Shown: positions 13,715 through 35,623, numbered from the stretch's first letter. The stretch is DNA of 64,000 nt from Bacteroidia bacterium (GCA_038237845.1 JBBRYH010000010.1:25692-89691); one strand, 5' to 3'. Notes: generated by a model not told the origin, from the letters alone. Numbers and translations are program-made.

Positions 13715-15454
13715 TTATTCCTGTTTTATAAACTTCGAACGTGAAACTATATTTCCGTTTTCAAACAATGAAACAAAGTAAACTCCTGAAGGAAGATTTG
13801 CAATATTCAGATTGATTTCTGAAACATTTTCTAACTGTTGTAATAAAACTTCCTGTCCAACAATAGAAGTGATTACAATTTTATCCCCGCTTTCTATGCC
13901 AGTGAGGTGTAATTCATCTTTTGCAGGATTTGGGAAAACATGAAGCGAACCTAAATTGTTTTCATCTATTCCTACATCAAGTGCCCAAGGATAGGACAGA
14001 AACGAACAGCCAAATGCATTTGTTACTTCCAAAGAATAAACGCCGTTTCCATTTGTAAGATAGTTAACCATATCGGATGTTTCTCCTGCTAAAGGATTTC
14101 CATTCAAATACCATTGCATTGTATTTCCCGTTGTGTCAATTGTAACAAATGAGTTTGATGTAATTGAAATTGCAGGATGCCATAGTGAATCACAGAAAAT
14201 GGCTGTGACGGTATCCGAAAAAGAAGTGCAACCAAAAGCGATAATTGCAATCACATAATAATCGCCAGAAATAAATACGGTGTCGGTTGGCGCATTCTGT
14301 CCGAGTTGCGGACTTCCATTTAAATACCACTGTAAACTATATTGAAGGGAATCTGTATGTAACGTGTGATTCAGAGAATCATAAACAATATTTGCAATAC
14401 CAGGATAACCATAAACGTGAATTGTATCATTCGTAATTACAGAAGGTACAGGGGGGACGACCGTATGATTTACCGTATAATTGACAACAGAAATATTTGC
14501 TGCGCATCCGGTACATCCATTCAATGACATGGTATGATTTCCAACAAAATCATCAGCACCAAAGCCAAATTCAAAATCATCTTCATCCCAAACTTCAAGT
14601 ACATATGTATTCAAAGGATTCATATTAATATTTAATCCGTACCAACCGACAGGAGGAAACTGATCGGCGAAATAACTGGATTGATAAACAGGAGTTCCGT
14701 TTTCTTTTACAATAACAAACAAATCTGGATTTCCATCAATAGGATAACCCCATACTGAAGCAGAGTTTTGAATGGATGTGATGTCAATAGATGTAAGTGT
14801 GTAAAAATTATTTGTTGTTGTGTCGGCATATGCTTCATAATGTACGACGTAATCACCAGGTACATTATATACTTGCGGCACCGGATTTTCTGCAGTCGTC
14901 TGATTCGTATTTCCGAAATCCCAATAATAACCTTGTAAGCCCGGATTATTATTGACGAAATTAACCGTGATAGGAGAACATCCTGTAAAACCTGCCATGC
15001 TAAATCCATTATTCGAAGTATTCGAAGTGGCAGGAAGTACATTAATATAAATCTGAAAATTTACTGGAATGCCGGTTGCAATGGTGAGATCAGCAATCAC
15101 GGTAACGTCGATTGCATAAAATCCCGCAAGCAATGGAGTTCCAGAAACATGAACACAACCGTATTGATTAACCCATGGATCGTAATTACATCCAGTTTGA
15201 TAATTACTGCATTGCCAGCTTAGTCCAACAGGAAGGGTGACAGTAAGAATTTGAAAATTTGTAAAATCATATCCTCCTGTATCCAACGGCATGACAAAAG
15301 TTGCATCGGTCGAGTAAGGAACACCGACAGTAGCTGTTGGAAGCGTATCAGGATATATTCCTGTTTGCGTATAAGTGAGATTTGGCGTGCAGGGCTGTGC
15401 GAAGAATTTGATTCCTAAAAACAGAAATACGATTGCCAGTGTAATTTTTTTCAT
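13715..15454 (-). CDS. Secreted T9SS cargo protein with a type-A C-terminal sorting domain. Start taken at MKKITLAIVF.
   Basis: Signal peptide. C-terminus LHVFPNPAKDELHLTG...IVITSIVGQEV...PSGVYFVSLFENGNIVSRSKFIKQE is a classic Por_Secre_tail. Confidence 0.75.
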   Translation of the reverse strand: MKKITLAIVFLFLGIKFFAQPCTPNLTYTQTGIYPDTLPTATVGVPYSTDATFVMPLDTGGYDFTNFQILTVTLPVGLSWQCSNYQTGCNYDPWVNQYGCVHVSGTPLLAGFYAIDVTVIADLTIATGIPVNFQIYINVLPATSNTSNNGFSMAGFTGCSPITVNFVNNNPGLQGYYWDFGNTNQTTAENPVPQVYNVPGDYVVHYEAYADTTTNNFYTLTSIDITSIQNSASVWGYPIDGNPDLFVIVKENGTPVYQSSYFADQFPPVGWYGLNINMNPLNTYVLEVWDEDDFEFGFGADDFVGNHTMSLNGCTGCAANISVVNYTVNHTVVPPVPSVITNDTIHVYGYPGIANIVYDSLNHTLHTDSLQYSLQWYLNGSPQLGQNAPTDTVFISGDYYVIAIIAFGCTSFSDTVTAIFCDSLWHPAISITSNSFVTIDTTGNTMQWYLNGNPLAGETSDMVNYLTNGNGVYSLEVTNAFGCSFLSYPWALDVGIDENNLGSLHVFPNPAKDELHLTGIESGDKIVITSIVGQEVLLQQLENVSEINLNIANLPSGVYFVSLFENGNIVSRSKFIKQE

Positions 15455-15520
15455 TGCGGTAGATTTCGGGTTATTCAAACATAGTGAATAATGGAGGATT
15501 GTAATATGATTTATACCCAA

Positions 15521-16435
15521 TCATCTATTTTTTCTGCCCTTAACCGCCAGGATAATAAATATAATTCCAAGAATTCCTACTGTGAGCAGGAGCGCAAAGA
15601 AGGCCCAGGAGTCATTATGTGTTTGATTGGTGATTTCAATCAAAATCGGGGATGCGTCCATCGTTAGGCCATAATGATCTTTGAAAAAAGATTTCTGACT
15701 GTTTGAAAGCCCTTCCCAAGCAATATTTCGAATAACTCCTAAGTGAGCTTCTGTATCAAATAGAGCGGAATATTCCTCATCATTCAATTTGTCAAAGGAT
15801 AAAACAACTTTAATCGGATCACCCTCTTTCCAGTTTTCATCTACCATTGGAATATATTCAGAGACGGTGGTTGTAGTGCTTCCGTGATTAGTTGTTTTTG
15901 TTGTTTCTTCCAATGACTTATCTAATAAGATTCCAGAAACAGAAACATTTCGAGAACCCGAATAATTCCCATTTATAATTTCACTGACATTAACTTTTGA
16001 AAATCCAAAATCAAAATAGTGACGAAGGCCCGGATAAAAAATGCCTGCCATGACAATCGTAATAAGGAGAAACGCAACAATCGGGGCCCATTTCTTTGGA
16101 TTGGCAACTTTCATTGCTTTAAAAGCATCTGCTTCGGAAAGGTGATTCAGACTTTTATCAGGAAAACGAATATGCAATTCTTTGATCATGTCGTCGAAAC
16201 CGGTTTCGGCTGGAGTAGCAAAAACCTGAACCTTCTTTGATTTTCCTTTGTTGTCGGTATAAAGGAAAAATACCGAACGGTAATCTTTATTATCAAAAAT
16301 GTAAAAATTTTGAAAGTTGGAAAGGGGAATTTCTTTTTTAATAAAAGGACCTGTCTTGGTTCGAATGGCGAACTCATCAACAGAAACCATGTTACTAGCT
16401 GTGAAATAGGAAAAATGAAATTCTTTCATGGGCAT
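15521..16435 (-). CDS. Hypothetical two-TM membrane protein (304 aa)
   Basis: ORF with an internal TM helix (WAPIVAFLLITIVMAGIFYP) and a C-terminal one. No recognised family. Confidence 0.45.
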   Translation of the reverse strand: MPMKEFHFSYFTASNMVSVDEFAIRTKTGPFIKKEIPLSNFQNFYIFDNKDYRSVFFLYTDNKGKSKKVQVFATPAETGFDDMIKELHIRFPDKSLNHLSEADAFKAMKVANPKKWAPIVAFLLITIVMAGIFYPGLRHYFDFGFSKVNVSEIINGNYSGSRNVSVSGILLDKSLEETTKTTNHGSTTTTVSEYIPMVDENWKEGDPIKVVLSFDKLNDEEYSALFDTEAHLGVIRNIAWEGLSNSQKSFFKDHYGLTMDASPILIEITNQTHNDSWAFFALLLTVGILGIIFIILAVKGRKNR

Positions 16436-16527
16436 AGGGGTTTAAAAGTAAATGTAATAAAAGGAACCCAAATTTGTAAGGTACTTCGTGTTATCTTTGA
16501 ATGCCCTTAACACTTAATCATTTTCAA

Positions 16528-17397
16528 ATGAAAAAAATATTTACCTGTATTTTCATTACTGTTTTTCTGATCAGTTTTGAATCAAAAGCACAGCTAGCAA
16601 TTGCAACTGATAGTATTCTGCAACTTTCAACATGTGCTGGGGGAAATATTATTGTGCCTTATACTGTTTCAGGCGGAAATTATGCTTTTGGAAATATTTT
16701 CACAGCACAACTTTCAAATTCATTCGGACAATGGACAGCGCCCATTAATATTGGAACTTTATTTTACTGGTCCAGCGGAATTATTTTTTGCACAATACCT
16801 GCTAATACCAATTTCGGATTCTTTTATAGAATTCGTGTAATAGCAAGTAATCCACAGGATACAGGAAGTCAATGCCCGAACACTTTAATTATTACTCAGA
16901 TTGCGCAGCTGAATCAGATTATTTCTAATCCAGGAGATACGATGTGTGTTGGAGATTCTATAACGCTTACATCCATTAATCTTGCAACGGCTTATTCCTG
17001 GTCTACTGGCGACACAACAATGGCGATAACTGTTGGTGCTCCCGGAATTTATAGTGTTACTACAACTGATTTTCTAGGATGTGAAAGCACAACAAGCGAT
17101 ACGATTGTTTCCAGTGCTTGTACAGGCGTTTTAGAAAATGATTTAGAAAATGCCTTATCGGTTTATCCGAATCCTGCTTCAGGAAAATTGAATTTGAAAT
17201 GGAATGCAAGCGGAACAAAGTTTCTGGATTTGCACATGTATAATGCGGAAGGCGTTGAAGTAATTCGTTCTGAAAAAATAAAGGTGAACAGTATTACAGA
17301 GGTTCAGCTCGACATTTCGCAATTAGCTCCTGGCATGTATATGTTGATAATTGATAACGGAGTTTCCCGTTCGATTAAGAAAATTGTGGTGGAGTAA
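16528..17397 (+). CDS. Secreted T9SS cargo protein with a type-A CTD. Start taken at MKKIFTCIFI.
   Basis: Signal peptide. C-terminus LSVYPNPASGKLNLKW...MYNAEGVEV...LAPGMYMLIIDNGVSRSIKKIVVE. Confidence 0.75.
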   Translation: MKKIFTCIFITVFLISFESKAQLAIATDSILQLSTCAGGNIIVPYTVSGGNYAFGNIFTAQLSNSFGQWTAPINIGTLFYWSSGIIFCTIPANTNFGFFYRIRVIASNPQDTGSQCPNTLIITQIAQLNQIISNPGDTMCVGDSITLTSINLATAYSWSTGDTTMAITVGAPGIYSVTTTDFLGCESTTSDTIVSSACTGVLENDLENALSVYPNPASGKLNLKWNASGTKFLDLHMYNAEGVEVIRSEKIKVNSITEVQLDISQLAPGMYMLIIDNGVSRSIKKIVVE

Positions 17398-18932: not shown

Positions 18933-19054
18933 TAATGGTTAATCAGAAGTCCAATAATATAGGAATTTTGTACTTGCTCAAAGTGCATGGCGATCTATAT
19001 TTGGTCATCAAAAATTTCCCCGATTTCCAAAACCAAAACCAAAAGCATAATTCA

Positions 19055-22000
19055 ATGAAAAGGTTTCTACTTTCTCTATCCATCTTCACAGCATGTTTTT
19101 TATCTGGATCATTAGATGCACAGATGACCACCTTCCGTTTTACCTACGATGTGGGATTATTCGACATTTCAGGGGGTATGGTTCAAAATCCTGCTGGAGA
19201 ATTTGTTTTTGCAGGGATCAATAATTCCTTCGGACCCTATTATGGAGACGCAGTAAAAATTGATGCATCAGGAACTGTTGTTTGGGCGAAAGCTTACAAC
19301 GGAGGTTTTGCAACGAACATTTCAGATATAAAAAACGTGAGCACTGGGGGATATATTATGACCGGTCAGTCTTCGAGCGCAGGCGGTGGTGCTTTGCTTA
19401 TTCGCATTGACAACGCAGGAGCTGTTTTGTGGGCATTTAAATATCAACTCCCAGACAAACCCGCCGCAAATGCTTCCAATGAATATGGAAATGCAGTAAT
19501 AGAAACTTCTGACGGCGGTTTTCTTGTTGGTGGTGGCGTGGATTATTTCTGGGATGGTGTTAGTCCAACAACAACTGACACAACAAGTGCAATGGGCTTT
19601 AAGGTAAATTCTAGTGGTGTTTTACAATGGAGTAAAGTTTGGACGATTGCAACTGCAAATCCAGATGAACATTATATTAATGATGTTGCCGAATCTGCTG
19701 ATGGATATTTTTTCGTCGGACAATCTTCTGAGGGTACTGGAACATTAAGTAGTAATGGTGATTACCCTAGCAATGCTTTAATTATTAAAACCACAACTGC
19801 AGGTGCATTAACTTATATCCGTAGATGGGGAGCAGGAAATGCTACTTCACAAGGAATTAATGCCGCAACAAAATTAACAACAGGAAATATTTTACTGGGG
19901 GGATTTGATGATGTAAGTGGATTTCTGGTTTCAATTTCTGGTGTTGGTGCTGCGCCTGCAGTTATTTATAATCACCGACTCAATGGGGCACTTTTTGGAA
20001 GTACCTACCTCATTCAGGATATTATGGAATGTGCAGATGGAAATTATTCAATTATTGGAACACAATTGGTTTTTCTTTCAGTCCAATTAAATACCATGAT
20101 CGTTAAATTAAATAGTTCAACGGGCGCATTAATGTTTGGTAGAACTTATGCGCCTATTGGCCTATCCGCAATTTTACCTGAAGGAGGATTGTGCACCGAT
20201 CAAGGTTATTATGTAGTAATGACGGATCAACAGGTTGGTGGATTTAATGCAAATGTTATTCGAACAAATACAGTGGGACAAACAAATGACCCCGCTTCAG
20301 GATGTCCAGGAACAAGTATTAATCCAACTATTGGAACCATTACAGTAACCTTTACAACACCAACAAGTTCAAATTTTAATCTTGCTGTAGGCTCTTCTTT
20401 TTCTCCTGTAGTTACAAATCTTATCCCCGTACGTACGCAACATTGTTTTAATGCACCTTCTGCTCTTAGTGCAACCTCTACTTCAACAAACGTTACTTGC
20501 TTTGGAGGTTGTAATGGAACTGCGACCGCAACTCCTGCAAATGGAACTGCGCCATATACTTATTTGTGGGCTCCAAGTGGGGGGACTGCCGCTACAGCAA
20601 CAGGTCTTTGCGCAGGAACCTACACTTGCACTGTAACAGATGCCGCATCTGTTAGTACAACAACTTCTGTTACTATTACACAACCCGCCGCAACAGTCGC
20701 AACCATCTCTGCAACACCAATTGAATGTAGTACCGGTTGGGCTTATATAACTGTAAATGTTACAAGTGGTGTTGGGCCCTACACTTATGCATGGTCTCCC
20801 AGCGGTGGAAATACAAATGTAGGTCAGGTATTTGTTGCAGGAAATTATACTTGTACAATAACAAACGGAGCAGGTTGTACTAGTACACAAAGCATCACAG
20901 TTGTTCCAGGCCCAGCCCCAACTTGTAGTATTACATCGAGCAGTAACAATTTATGTTTCGGAAATACGAATGGAACAGCAACAGTAACTGCAAGTAGTGG
21001 AATGGGACCTTATACTTATTCCTGGTCGCCAAGTGGCGGAACGGGGGCTACGGCTTCCAATCTTGCTGCTGGAACCTATACAGTAACGGTTACAGATTTC
21101 TTGGGATGTCAAGCCACATCAACTATAGTTATTACTGCTCCATCACAATTGACTTCCACTTCATCCCAAACAAACGTTTTATGTAATGGTGGAAATAATG
21201 GAACTGCAACAGTAGCTCCAACGGGCGGAACTCCAGGTTATACTTATTCATGGGCCCCAAGTGGTGGAACTGCAGCAACTGCAAGTGGACTTGCACCAAA
21301 CACATACACTTGTACAATTACGGACGGAGCAGGTTGTACTACAACACAAAACTTTACAATAACACAGCCTACAGTAATTTCGGCAAGTGCAACATCAACA
21401 CCAACAGGATGTAGTACGAATACAGGCTCAGCAACCTGCACAGCAAATGGCGGAACAGGAATTTTAACCTATAGTTGGGCTCCGTCAGGAGGAACGGCTG
21501 CCACAGCAATTAATCTTGGTGTAGGAAATTATACGGTGACCGTTACGGATGCAAATGGATGTACGAGTACCGCTAATGCATCTATTATAACTGCAGGAGG
21601 ACCAACCGCATCATTACAATCGAGTTCGAATGTCAATTGTTTTGGCTCATCCACAGGAACTGCTTCCGTCACTGCATCTGGTAATTCTCCTTTTACTTAT
21701 TCATGGAGTCCTTCTGGTGGGAATGCTGCAACAGCAAATGGATTGATTGCCGGAGGATATACCTGTACGATCACAGACATTAATGGTTGTGCTTCAACAC
21801 AAAGTGTTTTGATTACAGAACCCACGGCAATTGTTGCAAGTGCGTCTTCAACGCCAACAGGATGTAGTGCAAGTACTGGTTCTGCAACATGTACTGCTAA
21901 TGGCGGAACAGGTTCCTTAACTTACAGTTGGTCGCCATCTGGCGGAACAAGCGCCACAGCAAATAATCTTGCGGCAGGACCCTATGTTGTGACAATTACA

Positions 22001-23461
22001 GATGCCAACGGATGTACAACAACTGCGAATACAACTGTAACTAGTGTTGGAGGCCCAACAACATCTGTACAGACAACAACTAACGTTGCTTGTTTCGGGA
22101 ACAACACTGGCGCGTCAACAATTACTGCTAGTGGTAATGGACCACTTACTTACAGTTGGGCACCAATTGGCGGAAATGCGGCAACAGGTGCAAATTTATC
22201 AGCAGGAACATATACAGTCACTGTTACGGATATCAATGGTTGTGTTTCAGCACAAACTGTAACAATTACTGAACCGACTGTTATCGCCCCTTTCACTTCT
22301 TCGAATCCTGCAACTTGTGGTAACACAAATGGTGATGCAACAGTTAGTGTTACAGGAGGCACAGGACCTTATACCTATTTATGGAACAATTCACAAACTA
22401 CCGCAACAATTTCAAATCTTGCAGGAGGTTCTTATAATGTAACTGTAACCGATGCAAACGGATGTACTTCAACTGCAACTGTAAACGTAACTAATACGGG
22501 CGCACCAACAGTAAGTTTGCAGTCATCTTCCAACGTTTCTTGTTTCGGTGGAACAACAGGATCAGCAACAGTCCTTGTAAGTGGCGGATCATCGCCTTAC
22601 ACATATGCATGGTCACCTAGTGGAGGAACAAGTGCAAGTGCAACAAATCTTGGAGCGGGTACTTACACCATTACAGTAACAGGAAGTGATGGTTGTACTC
22701 AAACACAAACAGTAACATTGACACAGCCAACAGCTATTGCATTAACTTCTAATGCCGTTGCTGAAAACTGTGGTTCAGCTGATGGAAGCGCAAGTGTTGC
22801 TGCAAGTGGAGGAACACCTGGCTATACTTATGTATGGAGTAATGCAGCAACAAATGATTCAATTTCAAATCTTTCTGCCGGATCTTATTCTGTAACCGCA
22901 ACAGATGCAAACGGATGTACAACTTCTTCAACAGTTGTTGTTACCAATAACAGCACAGCAGTTGCCAACGCAGGAGCATCCGTTACGATTACTTCTGGAC
23001 AAACAGTTCAATTACTTGGAACAGGTGGCGTAACGTATAGTTGGACACCATCAGGAACCTTATCCTGCAGTAATTGTCAGAATCCGGTTGCCTCGCCTAC
23101 TGCAACAACTATTTATATGCTAACTGTTACAGATTCAAACGGATGTACGGATACGGACACCATCACGGTCTATGTTGACATTGCGTGCGGTGAAGTTTAT
23201 GTTCCAAATGCGTTTTCCCCGAATGGAGATCATCAGAACGATATGTTTTATGTAAGAGGTAATTGTATAAAATATCTTGACTTCTCTATTTATAATCGTT
23301 GGGGCGAAAAAGTTTTCTACACTGCTGATCCGGCAATGGGATGGGACGGAACTTGGAGAAACGTTGCATGTGAAAATGCAGTCTTTACTTATTATTTAAA
23401 AGCCACACTATTGGATGGAACAGAAATCGATCGACAAGGAAATATTTCACTTGTAAAATAA
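19055..23461 (+). CDS. SprB-repeat cell-surface adhesin (about 1469 aa): N-terminal beta-propeller-like region, about 12 SprB repeats, and a T9SS type-B CTD.
   Basis: Signal peptide MKRFLLSLSIFTACFLSGSLDAQ. Repeating units CFGxxNGTATxxxxGGTxPYTYSWxPSGGTxATAxxLxAGTYTxTVTDxNGC. C-terminus VYVPNAFSPNGDHQNDMFYVRG...FSIYNRWGEKVFY. Confidence 0.85.
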   Translation: MKRFLLSLSIFTACFLSGSLDAQMTTFRFTYDVGLFDISGGMVQNPAGEFVFAGINNSFGPYYGDAVKIDASGTVVWAKAYNGGFATNISDIKNVSTGGYIMTGQSSSAGGGALLIRIDNAGAVLWAFKYQLPDKPAANASNEYGNAVIETSDGGFLVGGGVDYFWDGVSPTTTDTTSAMGFKVNSSGVLQWSKVWTIATANPDEHYINDVAESADGYFFVGQSSEGTGTLSSNGDYPSNALIIKTTTAGALTYIRRWGAGNATSQGINAATKLTTGNILLGGFDDVSGFLVSISGVGAAPAVIYNHRLNGALFGSTYLIQDIMECADGNYSIIGTQLVFLSVQLNTMIVKLNSSTGALMFGRTYAPIGLSAILPEGGLCTDQGYYVVMTDQQVGGFNANVIRTNTVGQTNDPASGCPGTSINPTIGTITVTFTTPTSSNFNLAVGSSFSPVVTNLIPVRTQHCFNAPSALSATSTSTNVTCFGGCNGTATATPANGTAPYTYLWAPSGGTAATATGLCAGTYTCTVTDAASVSTTTSVTITQPAATVATISATPIECSTGWAYITVNVTSGVGPYTYAWSPSGGNTNVGQVFVAGNYTCTITNGAGCTSTQSITVVPGPAPTCSITSSSNNLCFGNTNGTATVTASSGMGPYTYSWSPSGGTGATASNLAAGTYTVTVTDFLGCQATSTIVITAPSQLTSTSSQTNVLCNGGNNGTATVAPTGGTPGYTYSWAPSGGTAATASGLAPNTYTCTITDGAGCTTTQNFTITQPTVISASATSTPTGCSTNTGSATCTANGGTGILTYSWAPSGGTAATAINLGVGNYTVTVTDANGCTSTANASIITAGGPTASLQSSSNVNCFGSSTGTASVTASGNSPFTYSWSPSGGNAATANGLIAGGYTCTITDINGCASTQSVLITEPTAIVASASSTPTGCSASTGSATCTANGGTGSLTYSWSPSGGTSATANNLAAGPYVVTITDANGCTTTANTTVTSVGGPTTSVQTTTNVACFGNNTGASTITASGNGPLTYSWAPIGGNAATGANLSAGTYTVTVTDINGCVSAQTVTITEPTVIAPFTSSNPATCGNTNGDATVSVTGGTGPYTYLWNNSQTTATISNLAGGSYNVTVTDANGCTSTATVNVTNTGAPTVSLQSSSNVSCFGGTTGSATVLVSGGSSPYTYAWSPSGGTSASATNLGAGTYTITVTGSDGCTQTQTVTLTQPTAIALTSNAVAENCGSADGSASVAASGGTPGYTYVWSNAATNDSISNLSAGSYSVTATDANGCTTSSTVVVTNNSTAVANAGASVTITSGQTVQLLGTGGVTYSWTPSGTLSCSNCQNPVASPTATTIYMLTVTDSNGCTDTDTITVYVDIACGEVYVPNAFSPNGDHQNDMFYVRGNCIKYLDFSIYNRWGEKVFYTADPAMGWDGTWRNVACENAVFTYYLKATLLDGTEIDRQGNISLVK
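20440..22960 (+). repeat. Array of about 235-nt tandem repeats encoding SprB repeat units (GC-richer, Gly/Thr/Ala codons).
   Basis: Periodic protein repeats. They generate several spurious antisense and alternate-frame ORFs (20483-20890, 21244-21441, 22150-22362). Confidence 0.7.
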
Positions 23462-23494
23462 AGAATTCTAAAAACTTACGTTAAAATTTTTCAT

Positions 23495-24541
23495 ATGAAA
23501 TCGAACATAAATAATTTTCTTGCAGTTGGATTGTTTCTGATTCCTATTTTCAGTTTTGGGCAGGACATTCATTTTTCGCAACTCGACCAGACGCCATTGT
23601 TATTAAATCCTGCTCAAACAGCTTTGTCACATACGGCAATGGGCATTGTGAATTTTAAAGACCAATGGAATAGTGTTAGCAAGACACCTTATCGCACCTA
23701 TAATTTCTGCGGTGATTTGGCCTACGCAAAAAAATCAAATGGATCGCATCTTGGTGTTGGTCTAGATTTATTTTCTGATAAAGCTGGTGATGGAGCCATG
23801 GGCACCACAACAGGACAACTTCATTTGTCGGGTGTACTTGCTGCAAATGATCAGAATTTACTTTCGTTAGGAATTTATGGTGGTTTTGGTCAGCGCAGTT
23901 TAACGTATGATAAACTATTGTGGGATAATCAATATGATGGAAATGCATATAATGCAGCATTACCTTCAGGAGAACCAGGAACTTTTGGAAATCATACCTA
24001 TGCTGATTTCGGTGCAGGACTTGCATGGTTTTATGGGAAAGGTCACTCTACATTATCATCCAAAGACGCGTTGAACTTTAATGCAGGATTTGCATTGCAA
24101 CACATTAATCAACCTGTCTACAGTTTTTATGGAGCAGGCGATTTAAAATTACCGATGAAATTTGTTGCTCATGGAAATGCAGAAATTGGATTGAAAAATA
24201 AAAATATTGTACTCGAGCCATCTTACATCGTAATGTTGCAGGGCGGACATCATGAAATTAATGCAGGGCTCCTATTTAAATATGTTATGCAGGAAGCTTC
24301 ACATTATACAGGAAGAAAAAAGCCTGCCGCTTTTGTTTTAGGTGGATATTATCGTTTCGGCGATGCTGCAGTAATTGCAACCGGATATGAATTTTCAAAT
24401 TACCGAATCGGAATTAGTTATGATGTCAATTTATCCGATCTAAATACCGCAAGTAAATCAAAAGGCGGATTAGAAGTATCCTTACGATTTATGACACCGG
24501 ATCCATTCGGGAAAAGCAGCTCCTCAAAATTATTTGACTGA
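23495..24541 (+). CDS. sprF: Type IX secretion system membrane protein PorP/SprF family, cognate partner of the upstream type-B CTD adhesin.
   Basis: N-terminus FGQDIHFSQLDQTPLLLNPAQTA matches the PorP/SprF signature (QDxxFSQ...NPA). About 348 aa. 33-nt gap to the adhesin gene. Confidence 0.8.
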   Translation: MKSNINNFLAVGLFLIPIFSFGQDIHFSQLDQTPLLLNPAQTALSHTAMGIVNFKDQWNSVSKTPYRTYNFCGDLAYAKKSNGSHLGVGLDLFSDKAGDGAMGTTTGQLHLSGVLAANDQNLLSLGIYGGFGQRSLTYDKLLWDNQYDGNAYNAALPSGEPGTFGNHTYADFGAGLAWFYGKGHSTLSSKDALNFNAGFALQHINQPVYSFYGAGDLKLPMKFVAHGNAEIGLKNKNIVLEPSYIVMLQGGHHEINAGLLFKYVMQEASHYTGRKKPAAFVLGGYYRFGDAAVIATGYEFSNYRIGISYDVNLSDLNTASKSKGGLEVSLRFMTPDPFGKSSSSKLFD

Positions 24542-24556
24542 GATTTTTTTTATCTC

Positions 24557-24596
24557 CCGCGGGTGGTTTCTGAAAAGAGCCACCCGTTTTTTTTGT
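24557..24596. terminator. Bidirectional intrinsic terminator between convergent genes: CGGGTGG...CCACCCG stem flanked by T-runs on both strands.
   Basis: 7-bp perfect stem 24560-24566 / 24580-24586, T8 downstream, A/T run upstream. Confidence 0.65.
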
Positions 24597-24615
24597 TGAA
24601 GAAAACAGTTCTTAA

Positions 24616-26064
24616 TTATTTCGGGCAATCATCCACATTGCCGTTTTTTGTTTTTGACTTTTTCTTTTTCCCACTTCCTCCAGTAGGAAACAAGGGAACT
24701 TTTATTGCAAAATAAACATCTGCTGTATAGTTTACTTTTTTAGGAAGTAATATCCCTAACATATTCGTAGTACCAACAATAAATGGTCCCAAACGAAAAC
24801 CAGTTCCAACACAAAGATTTCCAAATCGTGAAAATGAAATTGGCGCCCAGATTCCGTACCATCTTTTTTCCCAACGTGGGGTTACAGAAATTCGGGTAAG
24901 TTCATGCACTTTTCGTCCGTCGTTATTTCTTAAGTACACACCTGAAATAACTGTAGCATTTACAAAAAAAGATTTTCCTACGAAATAATCATACTGTACA
25001 TTTAAGGCAAGCGGTAAGCGCATCCACATTCCATTTCCTTCTTTACTTCCTCCCGAACGAGAATTAAAAAGAGAGCTAAGCGGGCTAGGAGATGTTGAAT
25101 TCCAAACATTGTTATTATAATCCCAAAGATTGGATTGTAAAGAATAATGATCTGAAAATTCTCCATAATGAAAATGAACGAAACCTAAATCTGTGATTGA
25201 AACACCAATACGATATTTATAAACGGGGCGATCACGAAAACCGGGCCACTCTTTTTCTTTTTTCTTTTCTTTCTCATTCTTCTGCATCACGTCAGGACGA
25301 AACTCATAAATAATTCCTGCATCAACACCTAGCCCAGGGTTAAAACCAACTTTATAACTGGGTTGCATGGAAGAATTAAAACTGAAATTATCAGAAATGC
25401 CAAAATCTGCATCTGCACGAACTATAGATAAAACAGAATCATTTCTGAAGTTGTATCCCACATCATTAACAAAAGCATATCCTCCTGCAAGACCTAATAA
25501 AAATTTCGGACGAACACCAAAACTTACAAAATGTTCAGCGCCTGTCCAGATGGTTTTTGCATAGGTTCCACCCAATTCAAACCAGCTTAATGCTGTTACA
25601 CCAATGTGTCTATTATATAATGTTTGTTCGTAATGCGACGGATCAGCTAATTCATTTACAAAAATATGAGCGAGATCTCTTGAAATTCCTTCCACATTCC
25701 CATACGTGCGCACTTTCATATCCACACCCCAACCCACTTTCCCATTAGAAAACATAATGCTCGGAAGAAGAATTTCATTTCTTACGAAGGCTGCTTTTTT
25801 GGTATTCCTTTCACGCAAGATATATTTTTGTGGACCGAAAGTTCCATTCAAATCAGCTCTACGTACACCTGCATAATTATTTCCCACCTCAAGTCCAGCA
25901 CCACAAACGAGTATGTCCATGCTGCAAACATTATCTGCAAGAGACGCAGGATTATAGGAAGCGCCGACAATTCCGGAATAATTACTATGGGCGTAGCCAA
26001 GATAATCTTGCGCGTAAAAGTGGATGGATAATAGGGAAAGAATAGGGAGTAAAAGTCGCTTCAT
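24616..26064 (-). CDS. Putative outer-membrane beta-barrel protein (482 aa) with a Lys-rich C-terminal tail
   Basis: Signal peptide MKRLLLPILSLLSIHFYAQ, Gly/aromatic-rich alternating pattern, C-terminal GGSGKKKKSKTKNG. Confidence 0.5.
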   Translation of the reverse strand: MKRLLLPILSLLSIHFYAQDYLGYAHSNYSGIVGASYNPASLADNVCSMDILVCGAGLEVGNNYAGVRRADLNGTFGPQKYILRERNTKKAAFVRNEILLPSIMFSNGKVGWGVDMKVRTYGNVEGISRDLAHIFVNELADPSHYEQTLYNRHIGVTALSWFELGGTYAKTIWTGAEHFVSFGVRPKFLLGLAGGYAFVNDVGYNFRNDSVLSIVRADADFGISDNFSFNSSMQPSYKVGFNPGLGVDAGIIYEFRPDVMQKNEKEKKKEKEWPGFRDRPVYKYRIGVSITDLGFVHFHYGEFSDHYSLQSNLWDYNNNVWNSTSPSPLSSLFNSRSGGSKEGNGMWMRLPLALNVQYDYFVGKSFFVNATVISGVYLRNNDGRKVHELTRISVTPRWEKRWYGIWAPISFSRFGNLCVGTGFRLGPFIVGTTNMLGILLPKKVNYTADVYFAIKVPLFPTGGSGKKKKSKTKNGNVDDCPK

Positions 26065-26227: not shown

Positions 26228-26797
26228 ATGAATAAGAACAGTTGTTTGGTTTTACTTTTTACAACAGTATACGCAGTGCTACGTTACACTATTTTCGGCC
26301 CAGTGCCTTATGAAGAAATACCAACTCTTATTTTTAACAAGAGTATTTCCTTTGCTTTGATTATTCTATTAGGCTTATCATTTTTGGAAAAGAAAAAATC
26401 AGAAAAGCGATATGCCTATTTACGTGTTGTAAACATGTTTGTAATTATCCATGTATTATTATCGCTTGCACTTTTTACAAAAGGATATTTTCCAAAATTA
26501 TTTGAAAATGAAAAACTCACTTTATTCGGCAACTTATCACTTCTTGCGGGAGTATTGGCTACGGTTTTTATGATGTTTCGAAAATTCAACATTAAAAATA
26601 TTTATATCTATCTCTTAATAGAATTTCATCTTCTTTTTATCGGAATTAAAGGATGGTTTGATTATCACAAATGGTTCGGTATGATGCCCCCAATCACGCT
26701 CATTTGTTTTCTTATTCTACTTATTCCAATACTATTGGAAGGAGCAAAAGTAAAAAATGATTATTTTAAAATTGAGTCAGACGAAAAAGAAAGTTAG
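26228..26797 (+). CDS. Hypothetical polytopic membrane protein (189 aa)
   Basis: ORF with about five hydrophobic helices. Confidence 0.45.
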   Translation: MNKNSCLVLLFTTVYAVLRYTIFGPVPYEEIPTLIFNKSISFALIILLGLSFLEKKKSEKRYAYLRVVNMFVIIHVLLSLALFTKGYFPKLFENEKLTLFGNLSLLAGVLATVFMMFRKFNIKNIYIYLLIEFHLLFIGIKGWFDYHKWFGMMPPITLICFLILLIPILLEGAKVKNDYFKIESDEKES

Positions 26798-26801
26798 CCA
26801 A

Positions 26802-28268
26802 CTAACTTTTCTTAATAATAATTTTCTGACCTAAATGAAGAACGGATTTTGTGGTTAGTCCATTCCAATCGCATAAATTCTGTACAGAGACTCCGTATTG
26901 TTTTGCGATAATAGAAAGTGATTCATTCTTTTTTACCACGTGAATTTTTTCAGTATTCGTACTGGTGTTAATCGTTTGACTCACTGAAGTACCTCCCAAG
27001 TTTGAAATTTGTGTATTTATTTTTAATTGCAATGAATCGCAATAGGGCTGAATACTTTTTGAATCGAATTCATTAAAGGCATTCAGAAAAGCCAATGAAA
27101 ATAAATTTGCCTGGAGTTCGTATCCAATTTTTGTAAAATGCAATTTGTCTTTTCCTGCCAATCCATTATTTAACCAATAGATCATGGAATTGTTTCCCCC
27201 CATAATTTTATTCAGATCCCAGAATGCGGAACCGGTTTCCGTTGCAATAAGTTTTAGTTTTTCATTGATTGGAATTGTATTGGCAGGATATCTATTTCTG
27301 GAACGCGTATCGGGAGTGTCTGTAAAAATAATATTGATTCCCGGAAATTCTGTTTTGATGCGATTAATGAAGAGCGAAACTTTGGTGTAATAATCATCTA
27401 TGTTAAAATAAGTATCATACGATTCGTTAGAACCATAAGAGAAAATCAGCAGATCAGGATTTATCTGATGCAATTGTGCCAAAGTAAAATCTTGGTCATT
27501 GACCAATTGAAGAAAAGTTGCACCAACAGTTCCGCATCTATTGTATTCTAATCCATGTTGCGAAGGATTTTCAAATTTAATACCATGAAAATTAAAAATA
27601 GTGTCTTCCGATTTTCCATCAAATTGTAATTTGAGTTCCGTTCCAACATGATAGTTGGTGATGATGGTGCAATAAAATCCGGATTCATTTTTTAAAGTCT
27701 CTTCGTAAATAGCTTCCGCACTTCCATTATTGATTAAAATTAATTTGAAATTATTACCACTATGCCAGATCGTAACTTTTTCAATTATTTTCCCATCTTC
27801 ATATTGGACTTCATTCTTTGGATTGTAAATAAAATTAATTGTAGCATTTTTGTCATTAGTTACTATTGTGTGTCCAGTAATTCCGATCGGATATTTATTT
27901 GGATTCTTAACAAGATTAGCGCAATTCCATTCTCCGGTAATTGTTGTCGTCAGATTTTTCGGCCCATAACCTTTGCAAACAGAATAAGGGAAAAGAATTC
28001 CTTCTCCACCTGCTCTGAAATTAGATTGCAAATTCTTTCGGATTACGCCACTTAAAAAATCTCCTTCAATATGTGAATCACCAAAGTGCGCAATGACAAA
28101 TCCAGAATCAACTTTGTTTTTTGCAAATCCCAATTGCTGGAAAGATGACTTTAGATTTTCCGCCCCTTGAATCTCATTGTATCGGATATTAATTACAGTA
28201 TCCTTTTGTCCGAACGTGGGTAAAGAAATGAGTAAGCCAATAAAAAGGAAGACACAGTAATTTTTCAT
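26802..28268 (-). CDS. Secreted SGNH/GDSL-family hydrolase or acyl-transferase with a C-terminal LysM peptidoglycan-binding domain
   Basis: SGNH blocks AHFGDSHIEGD (I), FSYGSNES (III), DKLHFT (V). C-terminal LysM HVVKKNESLSIIAKQYGVSVQNLCDWNGL...LHLGQKIII. Confidence 0.7.
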   Translation of the reverse strand: MKNYCVFLFIGLLISLPTFGQKDTVINIRYNEIQGAENLKSSFQQLGFAKNKVDSGFVIAHFGDSHIEGDFLSGVIRKNLQSNFRAGGEGILFPYSVCKGYGPKNLTTTITGEWNCANLVKNPNKYPIGITGHTIVTNDKNATINFIYNPKNEVQYEDGKIIEKVTIWHSGNNFKLILINNGSAEAIYEETLKNESGFYCTIITNYHVGTELKLQFDGKSEDTIFNFHGIKFENPSQHGLEYNRCGTVGATFLQLVNDQDFTLAQLHQINPDLLIFSYGSNESYDTYFNIDDYYTKVSLFINRIKTEFPGINIIFTDTPDTRSRNRYPANTIPINEKLKLIATETGSAFWDLNKIMGGNNSMIYWLNNGLAGKDKLHFTKIGYELQANLFSLAFLNAFNEFDSKSIQPYCDSLQLKINTQISNLGGTSVSQTINTSTNTEKIHVVKKNESLSIIAKQYGVSVQNLCDWNGLTTKSVLHLGQKIIIKKS

Positions 28269-28271
28269 TTA

Positions 28272-29726
28272 TTAAAAATCAAAATATATAAATGGGTGAA
28301 CCTCTGCAGAACGCATTTGAATAATTAATTGAATAATAATCCCCATCACCATAATTTTAAATACAAAGGGTAGTTTGTCATAAAGGAATCGTATTCCTGA
28401 TTTAAGCTTTAATGGCATTAATGCTAATGCGAAACCTATGCCAAAGATAAGTACCAGCAGAGGATTATTCGCCACAATTAGTTTTATCATCTCCAAATTG
28501 AATCCATGAAATATTGATTTATACATGGTGAATGTGTCCGTCATACTTTTTGCTCTGAACGGCACCCAAAGCAATACAACACATGAAAATGTTAAAGCCC
28601 AATAGAAAAATATCATATAGGGAATTTTGAAATTTATATAGCGGACATACAACTTATGTAAGATCAGCAATACGCCATGGCCGGCGCCCCAGAATATAAA
28701 TCTCCAAAAAGCACCATGCCAGAAACCGCCAATCAACATAGTCACCAAAAGAAATAGCAGTTGAAGAAAAAGCCCTTTTTTATTTCCGCCCAAAGGAATA
28801 TAAATATAATCACGCAGCCAGGATGAAAGGGAGATATGCCATCTTCTCCAAAATTCTGTAATGCTTGTAGATTTATACGGCGAATTAAAATTTACACTTA
28901 ATCTGAATCCAAGCAACAATGCAATTCCAATTGCCATATCTGTGTATCCGCTAAAGTCAAAGAATATTTGAAAGGCATAACATAACGTAGCGAAAATACT
29001 TTCTGTCCCGCTGAATCCTAAAGGTTGTGAAAAAACAACATCGGAATATTGCGCAATAAAATCTCCGATGATCGCTTTTTTAATCAAACCTTTTGAAATT
29101 AAAAAAAATGCTTCATTAATATTATCTCTACTAATGGCAATTCTTTTTGAAGCTTGAGGAAGAAAATCGGCAGCACGAACAATAGGTCCTGCAATGAGAT
29201 GTGGGAAAAAGGACATGTACATCAGGTATTCCGAATAGCTTGGGAAAGCCATTTTTTTCTTGTAGGTATCCACTAAAAAACTGATGGATTGAAAAGTATA
29301 AAATGAAATTCCTATTGGGAGAATCAATTCAATTAAGGTAAAATGCGTCCCACAGATTTCATTACAATTAGAAAAGAAAAAATTCCTGTATTTGAAATAA
29401 AGCAAAAACGACAAACTGAAAAGAATACCGATCGTTAGGAATATTTTTCGTGCTATTTCGCTTTTACTTGTGCTGATTAAGTAGGAGAATAGGTAATCCA
29501 AAGAAATGGTACTGACCAAAAGCAAAAGGAATAATCCACTAGTGATGTAATAAAAATAGAAACTGAAAATAATGATGTAAATGTTTCGAGCTGTTTTCTT
29601 TTCAGCTACTAAAGCATATCCAATTAAAAAAAAACTAAAGATGAATAGAAAAAATCCCGAATGAAAAAGCAAAGGCTCTGTTGGGACGCGATAGAATAAA
29701 CTGCCAATATAGTCCCAGTTGATCAT
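28272..29726 (-). CDS. MBOAT-family membrane-bound O-acyltransferase (AlgI/PatA/DltB-like)
   Basis: 484 aa polytopic. Conserved MBOAT His region WRRWHISLSSWLRDYIYIPLGGNKKG. Confidence 0.85.
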   Translation of the reverse strand: MINWDYIGSLFYRVPTEPLLFHSGFFLFIFSFFLIGYALVAEKKTARNIYIIIFSFYFYYITSGLFLLLLVSTISLDYLFSYLISTSKSEIARKIFLTIGILFSLSFLLYFKYRNFFFSNCNEICGTHFTLIELILPIGISFYTFQSISFLVDTYKKKMAFPSYSEYLMYMSFFPHLIAGPIVRAADFLPQASKRIAISRDNINEAFFLISKGLIKKAIIGDFIAQYSDVVFSQPLGFSGTESIFATLCYAFQIFFDFSGYTDMAIGIALLLGFRLSVNFNSPYKSTSITEFWRRWHISLSSWLRDYIYIPLGGNKKGLFLQLLFLLVTMLIGGFWHGAFWRFIFWGAGHGVLLILHKLYVRYINFKIPYMIFFYWALTFSCVVLLWVPFRAKSMTDTFTMYKSIFHGFNLEMIKLIVANNPLLVLIFGIGFALALMPLKLKSGIRFLYDKLPFVFKIMVMGIIIQLIIQMRSAEVHPFIYFDF

Positions 29727-29727
29727 A

Positions 29728-30594
29728 CTATTTTTTTGCGCGGCCTAATGCAACAAATGGACTGTTCTCGGGTTTTTTATATTCCACAACCGGTTTTGTA
29801 AATGATATCGGCGTGTATTCTTCCATCGAAACTGAGACACTATCAAACCAAACCTTTGATGCTTCAAAAGAAGGATGTCGTTTGTCGGGAGCTCTGTCGA
29901 GGACCAACTTTTGTGATGGATAGAATAAAGTATCTAATTCCTCCTCCATCACTTTGCAAATTCCATAATCTTTTGTCCATGCTGCAGGACCAATCCAATA
30001 ATAAGGAATGTGTTTGTCAGTGAAAGATTTGACAATCGTTTGAATATATTTTCTTCGAGGCTCAACACTTGGTGTAAGCACTTCATTCAGTCCTAAAGCA
30101 CAAATCACAAAATCTGGTTTGTATGTTTCAAGATATCTAGTAATAGTGTCGTTAGAAGCCCAAGCTGCAGTTGTTGAACCATACCAAGCAATGGAAGCAA
30201 CTAATTCATAATTATTATTGACACAAAAATTATAAACAGAAGAGCGCAAAAATTCCACTTGTGAATCACCGATCAATAAAACTTTTTTGATGGAAGTATC
30301 TTTTGCACAAAATTGTTTTTTTACAATTCCAGTATCCAAATACATAAAGAGTGTCCCCTTTTTGAATTTGACTTTGGATTTGTTTTGTGCGTAGAACGAA
30401 TAATGGTCTTTAAAATCTTTATGCGATGGCCCGTAGGCGATACTTTTTGTATCCGCACATTTTAATCCGAAAGGCAGTGGAGTCTTTAAAAAATCGACGA
30501 AAAAGAAAAGACTGAAAAGAAGGAGGAAGGCACAACCGGCAGAAAAGGCATACAATTTCGTTCTGTCGGAATTCATACTTTGGGAGATGGGCAA
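29728..30594 (-). CDS. Membrane-anchored SGNH-family protein (AlgJ/PatB-like partner of the MBOAT)
   Basis: N-terminal TM. Blocks LLIGDSQVEF (GDS), GLNE, DKRHP. Reading frame adjoins the MBOAT gene with a 1-nt gap. Confidence 0.65.
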   Translation of the reverse strand: MPISQSMNSDRTKLYAFSAGCAFLLLFSLFFFVDFLKTPLPFGLKCADTKSIAYGPSHKDFKDHYSFYAQNKSKVKFKKGTLFMYLDTGIVKKQFCAKDTSIKKVLLIGDSQVEFLRSSVYNFCVNNNYELVASIAWYGSTTAAWASNDTITRYLETYKPDFVICALGLNEVLTPSVEPRRKYIQTIVKSFTDKHIPYYWIGPAAWTKDYGICKVMEEELDTLFYPSQKLVLDRAPDKRHPSFEASKVWFDSVSVSMEEYTPISFTKPVVEYKKPENSPFVALGRAKK

Positions 30595-30857
30595 ATGTTT
30601 AAGGGAAGGAAATTACTTTTTAATTATTTTTGTTTCGACATTACAAAGCTATTAATTCTCTTATAAACCACCCTATCAGATAAACGATACTTTGAGGCAC
30701 TTATACAAAATAGCCGACACTGGTGAAGCATACTCGCTATGAATTTTAGTCAAATAGAAAATGAATATTTTTTTGTTTTAATAAGCCCATACTATTATAA
30801 GGTAAGAATAGAATCAAAAAAGACGATAAAACTAATCCCCTAAGTGAACACGATGAA

Positions 30858-30934
30858 TGGTGGAGAATATCGGAGTCGAACCGATGACCTTCTACATGCC
30901 ATGCAGACGCTCTAGCCAGCTGAGCTAATCCCCC
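30858..30934 (-). tRNA. tRNA-Ala (anticodon GGC), 77 nt including the encoded CCA
   Basis: Manual fold: acceptor GGGGGAU/AUUCUCC with G3:U70, D-stem GCUC/GAGC, anticodon stem UCUGC/GUAGA, loop AUGGCAU, T-arm AUCGG-UUCGACU-CCGAU, 3' ACCA. ORF 30746-30937 overlapping it is spurious. Confidence 0.85.
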
Positions 30935-34529: not shown

Positions 34530-34669
34530 GAGCGTTATTTTTTCTTTTCTATATATATATTTCCCGCTTTCACCTCGACGGCGCTCGGCTTTATCGGGGC
34601 TATTTATTGCATTGCCAATATCTATTTAAAAAAATTAGACTAAATTGCATTACAAACAAAAAAAACATC

Positions 34670-35623
34670 ATGAAAAAAATTTACTCTTTAATAGTATTTG
34701 CATCAATCGGTTTTACAGCGCATAGCCAGTCTTTCTGGACAGAAGATTTCGGAACAGGTTGCAACCAGGGAAATCTTGCTAGCGCATACGCTGGTTCAAA
34801 TGGATCCTGGACAATTGCAAGTACAGGTACAAATGACCCCGACGCAAATCCTTGGTTTGTAAGCGCAACAGAAGCAGGAACTGGCGTTGGCAATTGTGGC
34901 GCTGGTTGCGGTAGTAATTCAACACTTACAAATAGAACATTGCATGTCGGTAGTACTGCTATTCCTGCATTAGGTCTCCCTGCCGATCAAGGCGCATCTT
35001 ACAATGCTGGTGGTTTGTGCAGTAGCTTTGCTATTTGTGTAATTACAAATTCACGTGCAGAATCTCCTGTCATCAATTGTGCAAATAAAACGAACATCAC
35101 ATTAACATTCAATTATTTTGAAAATGGAGATCTTGCAAATGATGATGGCTCTGTTTGGTTTTACGATGGTACAACATGGGCATTATTACAGAATACAGCT
35201 AAAACAACACTCGGCAATTGTGCTCCTCAAGGAAAATGGACAGCAATTAGCATTGTGCTTCCTGCTAGTGCAAACAATAATCCAAATGTGAAAATCGGAT
35301 TTAACTGGACCAATAACGATGATGGTGTTGGAACAGATCCTTCCTTTGCGGTGGATGATATTGCACTTACTCAATCACCATCAGGTATTGCAACTATTAC
35401 AAATAATCAACTAAACGTTGTTGTATTAGCAAATGGCCAGATAACAATCATTCCGAATGGTCAGGCCTACAAAATGCTTGCGGTTTATGATATGGTTGGA
35501 AGAGAAATAAAATTCACACAAACAGAAAATACAATTTCACTCGGCAATACTGCTCCGGGAATTTATATTATCAATTTGGATGTGAACGGAACGCGTGTGG
35601 TGAAGAAAGTAGTTATGAATTAG
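34670..35623 (+). CDS. Secreted T9SS cargo protein with a type-A CTD. Start taken at MKKIYSLIVF.
   Basis: Signal peptide. C-terminus PGIYIINLDVNGTRVVKKVVMN. Confidence 0.7.
   Translation: MKKIYSLIVFASIGFTAHSQSFWTEDFGTGCNQGNLASAYAGSNGSWTIASTGTNDPDANPWFVSATEAGTGVGNCGAGCGSNSTLTNRTLHVGSTAIPALGLPADQGASYNAGGLCSSFAICVITNSRAESPVINCANKTNITLTFNYFENGDLANDDGSVWFYDGTTWALLQNTAKTTLGNCAPQGKWTAISIVLPASANNNPNVKIGFNWTNNDDGVGTDPSFAVDDIALTQSPSGIATITNNQLNVVVLANGQITIIPNGQAYKMLAVYDMVGREIKFTQTENTISLGNTAPGIYIINLDVNGTRVVKKVVMN

Follow-up and report, generated by a model that had tools for sequence, protein, structure and literature searches.

Which surface polymer is modified by the products of three tightly packed genes, two encoding SGNH proteins and one an MBOAT, and how is the work divided among them? 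The question is raised by positions 26,802–30,594 of a 64,000-nucleotide (nt) stretch of DNA from a Bacteroidia bacterium (GCA_038237845.1; JBBRYH010000010.1:25692-89691), the whole of which is referred to here as the window. A first-pass annotation, made from the sequence alone, had proposed a candidate operon for O-acetylation of peptidoglycan or of another polysaccharide at this position. The evidence assembled below indicates that the three genes, designated g1, g2 and g3, probably constitute an operon of the O-acetylpeptidoglycan (OAP) type in a Bacteroidota bacterium, consisting of a writer (g1 and g2) and an eraser (g3).

All three open reading frames (ORFs) lie on the minus strand. g1 (29,728–30,594) encodes a membrane-anchored SGNH protein (288 amino acids (aa), or 282 aa from the likely start), g2 (28,272–29,726) a PatA/AlgI/DltB-type MBOAT of 484 aa, and g3 (26,802–28,268) an Ape1-type esterase homologue of 488 aa with a C-terminal LysM domain, predicted to be secreted. 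g1 and g2 are separated by 1 nt (TAG-T-ATG, in ...AAA TAG T ATG...) and g2 and g3 by 3 nt (TAA-TAA-ATG, in ...TTT TAA TAA ATG...), in agreement with the earlier description of three co-directional, nearly abutting genes. The G+C content of the cluster is ~32–36%, and the nearest relatives are from uncultured Bacteroidia.

An MBOAT with a C-terminal acyl-shuttle motif

g2 scores 95.7 bits against the Pfam MBOAT family PF03062 (cut-off 27), which bears out its description as AlgI/PatA-like. The closest solved structures are those of DltB (6bug and 8jem, E ~1e-25), but the score against the NCBIfam DltB equivalog (TIGR04091; 159.7 bits, cut-off 375) is far under its cut-off, so g2 is not DltB itself. 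The segment WRRWH297IS (His297 codon, 28,836–28,838, minus strand) aligns with NRWHMS of DltB, and WR[RK]WHIS or WHRWHIS is present in all 50 complete g2 homologues from related loci. We read this segment as the likely site of the universally conserved catalytic His of MBOAT proteins, a residue that PatA needs (PMC12148441).

The g2 protein ends in ...HPFIYFDF. Its C-terminal hexapeptide, read directly from the sequence (F479-I-Y481-F-D-F484; 28,275–28,292, minus strand), is an FxYxxF acyl-shuttle motif, and PFIYF[QED]F forms the C-terminus of the same homologues without exception (50/50). The Tyr of this motif is auto-acetylated in Campylobacter jejuni PatA and then donates acetyl to PatB, and the motif is common to MBOATs of the AlgI, WssH and PatA1 types and to DltX (PMC12148441). 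The partner MBOATs of two loci discussed below, L062 (5,787–7,481) and L057 (7,424–9,106), are ~80 residues longer (560–564 aa), the extra length being a hydrophilic insert ahead of the last helices.

A LysM-bearing homologue of the esterase Ape1

The LysM domain of g3 (26,811–26,942, minus strand; residues 443–486) scores 50.4 bits against PF01476 (cut-off 20.9; E 2e-13) and matches the LysM of an autolysin (2mkx) with E 2e-7. The predicted structure shows the β-α-α-β succession of the domain (strand 440–444, helices 451–457 and 462–469, strand 482–486), and a spurious LysM call, which the first-pass annotation had named as a possible weakness, is thereby dismissed.

The rest of the protein resembles Ape1. 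The match to the Pfam family Lipase_GDSL_2 (36.7 bits, cut-off 32.9) is limited to residues 243–385, and the best PDB sequence match obtained with phmmer is Ape1 of Neisseria meningitidis (4k3u, E 5.7e-23), aligned in two stretches (56–143 and 229–390) that bracket an insert. An AlphaFold2 model (mean predicted local distance difference test score (pLDDT) 89.7; predicted TM-score (pTM) 0.82) comprises an N-terminal hydrophobic helix, an SGNH domain split by an all-β module, a helical linker and the LysM. When this model was compared with the PDB using Foldseek, 4k3u was matched with E 1.2e-25 (target TM 0.80). The C. jejuni enzyme (8gkd and 8gld) was matched with E ~1e-21 (2e-21 for 8gkd), the next match after Ape1 being a CE2 esterase (E 4e-8).

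The insert, a predicted β-sandwich (27,564–27,971, minus strand; residues ~100–235), separates SGNH block I from the rest of the domain, is modelled as all-β over residues 106–233 and is included in the Foldseek alignment of g3 with Ape1, which runs over 372–378 columns. On the basis of the model it corresponds to the CBM35-type module of Ape1; a carbohydrate-binding module (CBM) inserted in Ape1 has been described (PMC9487903, PMC12148441). Motif I (GDSH, 63–66) and motif VII (D374-K-L-H377) fit the GDS(H/F) and DxxH motifs of Ape1, and no variation at G63-D64-S65, N281, D374 and H377 is seen among 52 g3 homologues. The CGTVGA segment of g3 aligns with MGINGA of Ape1, and its glycines are at least 90% conserved.

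Because homology to Ape1 is found in both sequence and predicted fold, β-sandwich insert included, g3 is assigned as a putative O-acetylpeptidoglycan esterase, clearly homologous to Ape1 and with an added LysM, and not as a PatB-type transferase. Two SGNH proteins are present, as had been noted earlier, but they are not equivalent, the one with LysM being the Ape1 esterase homologue. The N-terminal hydrophobic helix of g3 is short (model residues 4–14), and we read it as a probable cleavable signal peptide, whence the predicted secretion. A literature search for LysM-Ape1 fusions found none.

A compact, membrane-anchored SGNH protein

The g1 ORF begins with TTG, while its homologues begin at the equivalent of M7, and on the basis of their alignment the ATG at 30,576 is the likely start, giving a protein of 282 aa. 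In the public annotation this gene is called from M84 (P0001, 205 aa), without the helix and the linker described below, so that the homologue-supported start corrects the public gene model.

Residues G109-D110-S111, W137-Y138, S140, G168-L-N170-E and D237-x-x-H240-P are invariant in an alignment of 46 g1 homologues and, judged by alignment, make up the full SGNH block I/II/III/V set. The putative block I nucleophile, Ser111 of the GDS motif (codon 30,262–30,264, minus strand), is found in 46/46 homologues and in 133 of 134 representatives of the wider family. The AlphaFold2 model (pLDDT 83 overall) consists of a helix (residues 9–35), a low-confidence linker (~36–100) and a compact α/β SGNH domain (100–288) with pLDDT >90. 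The helix is predicted to be transmembrane (30,490–30,570, minus strand; pLDDT >90 over most of its length), and a hydrophobic N-terminal segment is kept in the homologues, with G20 and F30 conserved at 90% or above. Foldseek matches of the model are SGNH hydrolases (TesA, E 2e-6; GDSL lipases; acetyl-xylan esterase), with the SGNH domain of OatA at rank 12. The predicted helix, the SGNH fold and the invariant catalytic residues together support the original view of g1 as a membrane-anchored SGNH protein. Profile-profile comparison of g1 with g3 gave a single 49-column match around block III (probability 40%) and nothing else, and g1 is thus not a close paralogue of g3.

A profile search run exhaustively over 1.84 billion representatives recovered 844 g1-related clusters (50% identity; E ≤1e-3), and a second search gave 1623 proteins, Prevotella and Bacteroidales among them. 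Distant relatives carry only the database names ‘hypothetical’ or ‘SGNH/GDSL hydrolase’. In Pfam searches of 134 diverse representatives (whole-protein E ≤0.01), DUF459 is matched most often, though weakly (59/134; best E 3e-7), followed by Lipase_GDSL_2 (40/134); DUF459 is the PatB family (PMC9487903). Of the 134, 79 have Ser at the block II Gly position, 47 retain Gly and 3 have Asn, and Ser or Asn at this point (type I turn) is reported to set the transferases PatB and Streptococcus pneumoniae OatA apart from esterases (PMC12148441). Motif I, which is GDSQ in the window protein, is mostly GDSM in the wider family. A broad family profile finds its best PDB match, a marginal one (6se1; E 0.009), in an acyltransferase of lipopolysaccharide (LPS) modification, namely in its SGNH domain, with no PatB among the PDB matches of the profile. 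On this evidence, g1 belongs to a divergent, PatB-related SGNH family outside the formal Pfam and NCBIfam models.

Conservation and modular composition of the cluster

With the g1 profile, 56 genome loci were collected, from Crocinitomicaceae, Cryomorphaceae, Lishizhenia, Lentimicrobiaceae, Saprospiraceae, Cytophagales and unclassified Bacteroidia. The MBOAT gene directly follows g1 in all 53 loci with a long enough contig, across several Bacteroidota orders, and an Ape1-like gene then follows in 35 of the 44 that have at least 1.2 kb of further sequence. The MBOAT beside an Ape-type SGNH gene, conserved across genomes, by which OAP clusters are recognised, is therefore found here. LysM is present on the Ape1-like gene in 14–15 of these 35 loci and lacking in ~20, where the product is ~360–410 aa. 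The remaining 9 of the 44 have the g1-MBOAT pair alone; since the pair stands without an esterase there, g1 and g2 represent the minimal unit. The conserved core of the cluster is g1 plus MBOAT, to which a lineage-specific esterase is added. Together with the FIYFDF tail, this strict synteny of g1 and MBOAT upholds the PatA/PatB-type logic first proposed for the locus.

Several individual loci repeat the arrangement seen in the window or vary it. The cultured Aquirufa lenticrescens (L058, 3,241–7,191) has a glucosaminidase gene, a g1-like gene, an MBOAT gene and an Ape1-like gene without LysM; the glucosaminidase-domain gene is small and directly upstream of the g1-like gene. On a Prevotella sp. 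metagenome contig (L060, 3,594–8,433), a g1-like gene (263 aa) and an MBOAT gene (product ending FIYSQF) are accompanied by a CE2-type esterase (CE2_N plus GDSL), and the gene ahead of them encodes a phosphohexomutase-family protein with four PGM_PMM domains, which we read as GlmM-like. Locus L062 has only the g1-like and MBOAT genes, with no Ape1-like gene. From this variety, the eraser module appears to be interchangeable among relatives.

No g1 homologue is present in a Flavobacterium-like genome (CP158863.1; L057, 4,526–9,106), where the order is a membrane-anchored Ape1-like protein (492 aa), a LysM-containing Ape1-like protein and an MBOAT (560 aa, ending FIYFQF). The LysM of the second protein is in mid-protein (residues ~202–248). 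The transferase partner may in this case be an Ape1 paralogue.

Two database entries are unusual. P0155 (815 aa; 6.3 kb contig of a JGI metagenome) is a single ORF in which the C-terminal half of an Ape1-like SGNH domain, lacking the GDS block, is linked to a complete MBOAT that ends in FIYFRF; either the fusion is genuine or two neighbouring genes were frameshifted or miscalled. The only locus assigned to Verrucomicrobiota (L050) is a g1/MBOAT/Ape1-like cluster of typical Bacteroidota-like make-up on a 3.9 kb contig that bears the label Terrimicrobiaceae; as the contig is very short and the cluster Bacteroidota-like, a binning error is likelier than a true occurrence outside Bacteroidota.

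Comparison with known acetylation systems

The patA-patB-ape1 operons of Neisseria and Campylobacter have the same three functional parts in a tight operon: an MBOAT with the FxYxxF shuttle, a membrane-tethered Ser/His/Asp SGNH partner and a β-sandwich-interrupted Ape1. They differ in gene order, which is SGNH-MBOAT-Ape1 here. The plan of PatB, with a helix, a ~80–100-residue linker and a C-terminal SGNH domain (PMC12148441), is matched by g1, which is nevertheless more compact, scores under the DUF459 threshold, has Gly in block II and does not have solved PatB as its nearest structural neighbour. Compared with Neisseria Ape1, g3 has an extra C-terminal LysM and is only ~21% identical.

Closer in taxonomy are the OAP clusters ape1b-ape1c-pat of Bacteroides and Porphyromonas, described in 2005 by Weadge et al. 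(PMC1199599). They belong to the same phylum and likewise combine an MBOAT with two SGNH proteins, one with a ~100-aa insert after block I and one without. Both SGNH genes are upstream of pat in those clusters, whereas here one lies on each side of the MBOAT gene, and LysM was not reported there. The GDS(H/F) motif I of the Ape families is not found in g1 (GDSQ), ‘Ape1c’ being compared by its motif description only.

The DltB-DltD-DltX system, to which the closest solved relative of g2 belongs, uses the same relay, from MBOAT to hexapeptide Tyr to a membrane-anchored SGNH protein to polymer, the difference being that the hexapeptide is fused to the MBOAT in g2. No dltA, dltC, dltD or DltX genes lie near the cluster in the window, and Bacteroidota are not known to make teichoic acids. 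The AlgI-AlgJ-AlgF-AlgX and WssH-WssI systems likewise pair an MBOAT having the same C-terminal motif with a periplasmic SGNH-like transferase. Unlike in these alginate and cellulose systems, AlgX/AlgJ-type domains, AlgF, WssF or WssG and an enclosing polysaccharide synthase operon are all absent here. From known OAP clusters the locus differs in the gene order, the compact PatB-related partner that scores under profile thresholds, the LysM-Ape1 fusion and the modular replacement of the eraser among relatives.

Proposed pathway and alternative explanations

According to the pathway that we propose, g2 would take acetyl from cytoplasmic acetyl-CoA and, with His297 as catalytic base, load it onto Tyr481 of the FIYFDF tail at its own C-terminus, on the periplasmic side. 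The acetyl group would next be picked up from this tail on Ser111 (triad Ser111/Asp237/His240, oxyanion Asn170) of the g1 SGNH domain, which an N-terminal helix and a flexible linker of ~65 residues would hold at the inner membrane, and would then be handed to a glycan-strand hydroxyl, the likeliest being the C6-OH of N-acetylmuramic acid (MurNAc). Exported via its putative signal peptide, g3 would bind peptidoglycan through LysM and the inserted β-sandwich and remove O-acetyl groups with Ser65/Asp374/His377, allowing lytic transglycosylases and wall turnover to proceed.

Peptidoglycan is favoured as the substrate on four grounds: g3 is homologous to Ape1, it carries a LysM, relatives have wall-related genes beside the cluster (the glucosaminidase of Aquirufa and the phosphohexomutase-family gene of Prevotella), and a polysaccharide synthesis context is absent. 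It also fits the O-acetylation of Bacteroides peptidoglycan, which reaches 27–69% of MurNAc (PMC1199599, PMC11382707), and the OAP clusters of 2005 from that genus and Porphyromonas. The LysM-based argument of the first-pass annotation for this substrate is strengthened by the acyl-shuttle tail and the g1-MBOAT synteny.

Several observations count against assignment of the cluster to peptidoglycan O-acetylation, most of them concerning g1. It scores under all Pfam thresholds (Lipase_GDSL_2, 17 bits, cut-off 32.9; DUF459, PF04311, 15.2 bits, cut-off 27.2) and gave no match in an NCBIfam search. The first-pass annotation had named SGNH motifs failing profile thresholds as grounds for refutation, and formally g1 provides such a failure, whereas g3 passes. 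No PDB sequence relative of g1 was found at E ≤0.5 with phmmer, which gave only matches at E 0.7, or with the close-family profile, which gave none; solved PatB is not in the best 50 Foldseek matches. Block II has the canonical Gly (Gly139) and not the Ser or Asn of PatB, the SGNH domain is ~40 residues shorter than that of NgPatB between blocks III and V, and no wing-like hairpins are seen in the secondary-structure string of the model. Peptidoglycan-binding modules are absent from both g1 and g2, and the link to peptidoglycan is made via a neighbouring esterase that is missing in 9/44 loci and of CE2 type in Prevotella. As regards the fold of g1, the structure prediction and the invariant catalytic residues outweigh the failed thresholds, and the predicted SGNH assignment stands.

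The absence of a peptidoglycan-binding domain from g1 and g2, and the variability of the third gene, would be compatible with acetylation, or another acylation, by g1-g2 of a different extracytoplasmic glycan (exopolysaccharide, capsule, LPS or surface glycan), with the esterase serving that polymer or a separate purpose. Parallels exist in AlgI/AlgJ/AlgX (alginate), WssH/WssI (cellulose) and PatA1/PatB1 (secondary wall polysaccharide), and MBOAT-SGNH pairs sharing the C-terminal motif serve several polymers (PMC12148441). We nonetheless consider such a substrate unlikely: an Ape1 homologue, which in the window carries LysM, is the partner found most often, and no match to AlgX/AlgJ-type families was obtained. 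Alginate and cellulose acetylation genes lie within their biosynthetic operons, whereas no glycosyltransferase, synthase or export genes are found beside the window cluster or conserved in related loci. The AlgI/J/X-type alternative raised by the first-pass annotation is not supported, AlgX/AlgJ-type proteins and polysaccharide synthase genes both being absent from the neighbourhood.

It is less probable still that the roles of the SGNH proteins are swapped or shared, g3 being a peptidoglycan transferase held in place by LysM and g1 an esterase or a regulator of the MBOAT. Such an exchange is suggested by the Flavobacterium locus, where two Ape1-like proteins, one membrane-anchored, are the sole SGNH partners of the MBOAT, by the esterase-type block II Gly retained in window g1, and by the joining of an Ape1-like C-terminal half to an MBOAT in P0155. 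It is difficult to reconcile with the nine loci, and L062, in which g1 and MBOAT occur without an Ape1-like gene, an odd situation for a mere esterase; the PatB-like membrane tether of g1, the PatB-like block II Ser and weak DUF459 similarity of most of its family, the helix of g3 read as a cleavable signal peptide and the closeness of g3 in fold to proven esterases also point the other way. Chance adjacency of three functionally unrelated genes is scarcely credible. The flanking genes and tRNA are indeed not conserved, but spacers of 1 and 3 nt and, above all, the synteny across related loci (53/53 for g1-MBOAT, 35/44 for the Ape1-like gene) refute it.

g1-type proteins could be the unrecognised functional PatB of Bacteroidota, compact, DUF459-related, present in at least 844 clusters and encoded without exception directly upstream of a PatA-like MBOAT, a broader proposal to which we give even chances. 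Under the same proposal the eraser would vary with the lineage, being an Ape1 with or without LysM, a CE2-type esterase or lacking altogether, with a membrane-anchored Ape1 paralogue as the writer partner in Flavobacterium.

Flanking sequences and transcription signals

A tRNA-Ala(GGC) gene (30,858–30,934) lies on the same strand as g1-g3, 263 nt upstream of g1. It had been remarked upon as lying just upstream of the operon and is indeed there, but is incidental to it, since none was found beside any of 58 related loci (L001-L058). The other flanking genes (the 189-aa membrane protein, DUF5723, PorP and downstream ORFs) were likewise considered as parts of the cluster and rejected, none of them being present in the same 58 loci.

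Upstream of g1, TAGCTTTG (30,644–30,651, minus strand; 68 nt upstream of the ATG at 30,576) fits TAnnTTTG, which we take to be the Bacteroidota −7 promoter consensus, and is a weak candidate only. The full Bacteroidota −33/−7 pattern (19-nt spacing) is absent upstream of g1, a scan for sigma-70 promoters and terminators performed no better than on shuffled sequence, and an Rfam search of the 5′ region for riboswitches or other RNAs matched the tRNA only. At the other end of the cluster, a convergent 189-aa ORF encoding the membrane protein (26,228–26,797) ends 4 nt from the 3′ end of g3, and an AT-rich hairpin (26,787–26,813, not assigned to a strand) spans the stop codons of both genes. The 61-nt stretch containing the hairpin and an outer stem (26,770–26,830) has a minimum free energy of −13.9 kcal/mol (z −3.05), which none of 200 shuffles equalled. 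The hairpin, which was not called by a simple terminator scan, may be a bidirectional terminator at the 3′ end of the operon.

Surrounding genes in the window encode type IX secretion/gliding proteins (SprB-repeat protein, PorP/SprF, DUF5723), pyruvate kinase and PheS, with no polysaccharide synthesis gene among the neighbours of the cluster. The gliding/type IX secretion neighbourhood occupies 18,935–26,064 and includes the SprB-repeat protein (1508 aa, with a CHU_C sorting domain), the PorP/SprF gene (23,495–24,541) and the DUF5723 gene (24,616–26,064); further ORFs with Por_Secre_tail domains are found at 13,715–17,397 and 34,607–35,623.

Implications for wall acetylation in Bacteroidota

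O-acetylation of MurNAc blocks lysozyme and controls lytic transglycosylases, and the walls of Bacteroides are among the most heavily O-acetylated known. Our literature search found no report of any characterised Bacteroidota peptidoglycan O-acetylation enzyme, and a search aimed at this phylum yielded only papers on other subjects. The locus and its relatives provide a specific and widespread candidate enzyme pair for this activity, consisting of a small anchored SGNH protein, ‘hypothetical’ in public annotation and truncated here, and a PatA-like MBOAT with an acetyl-Tyr tail; a dedicated eraser accompanies this candidate writer pair. The consequences are modest and involve no new mechanism: they amount to a testable gene assignment for a known modification and an example of eraser swapping.

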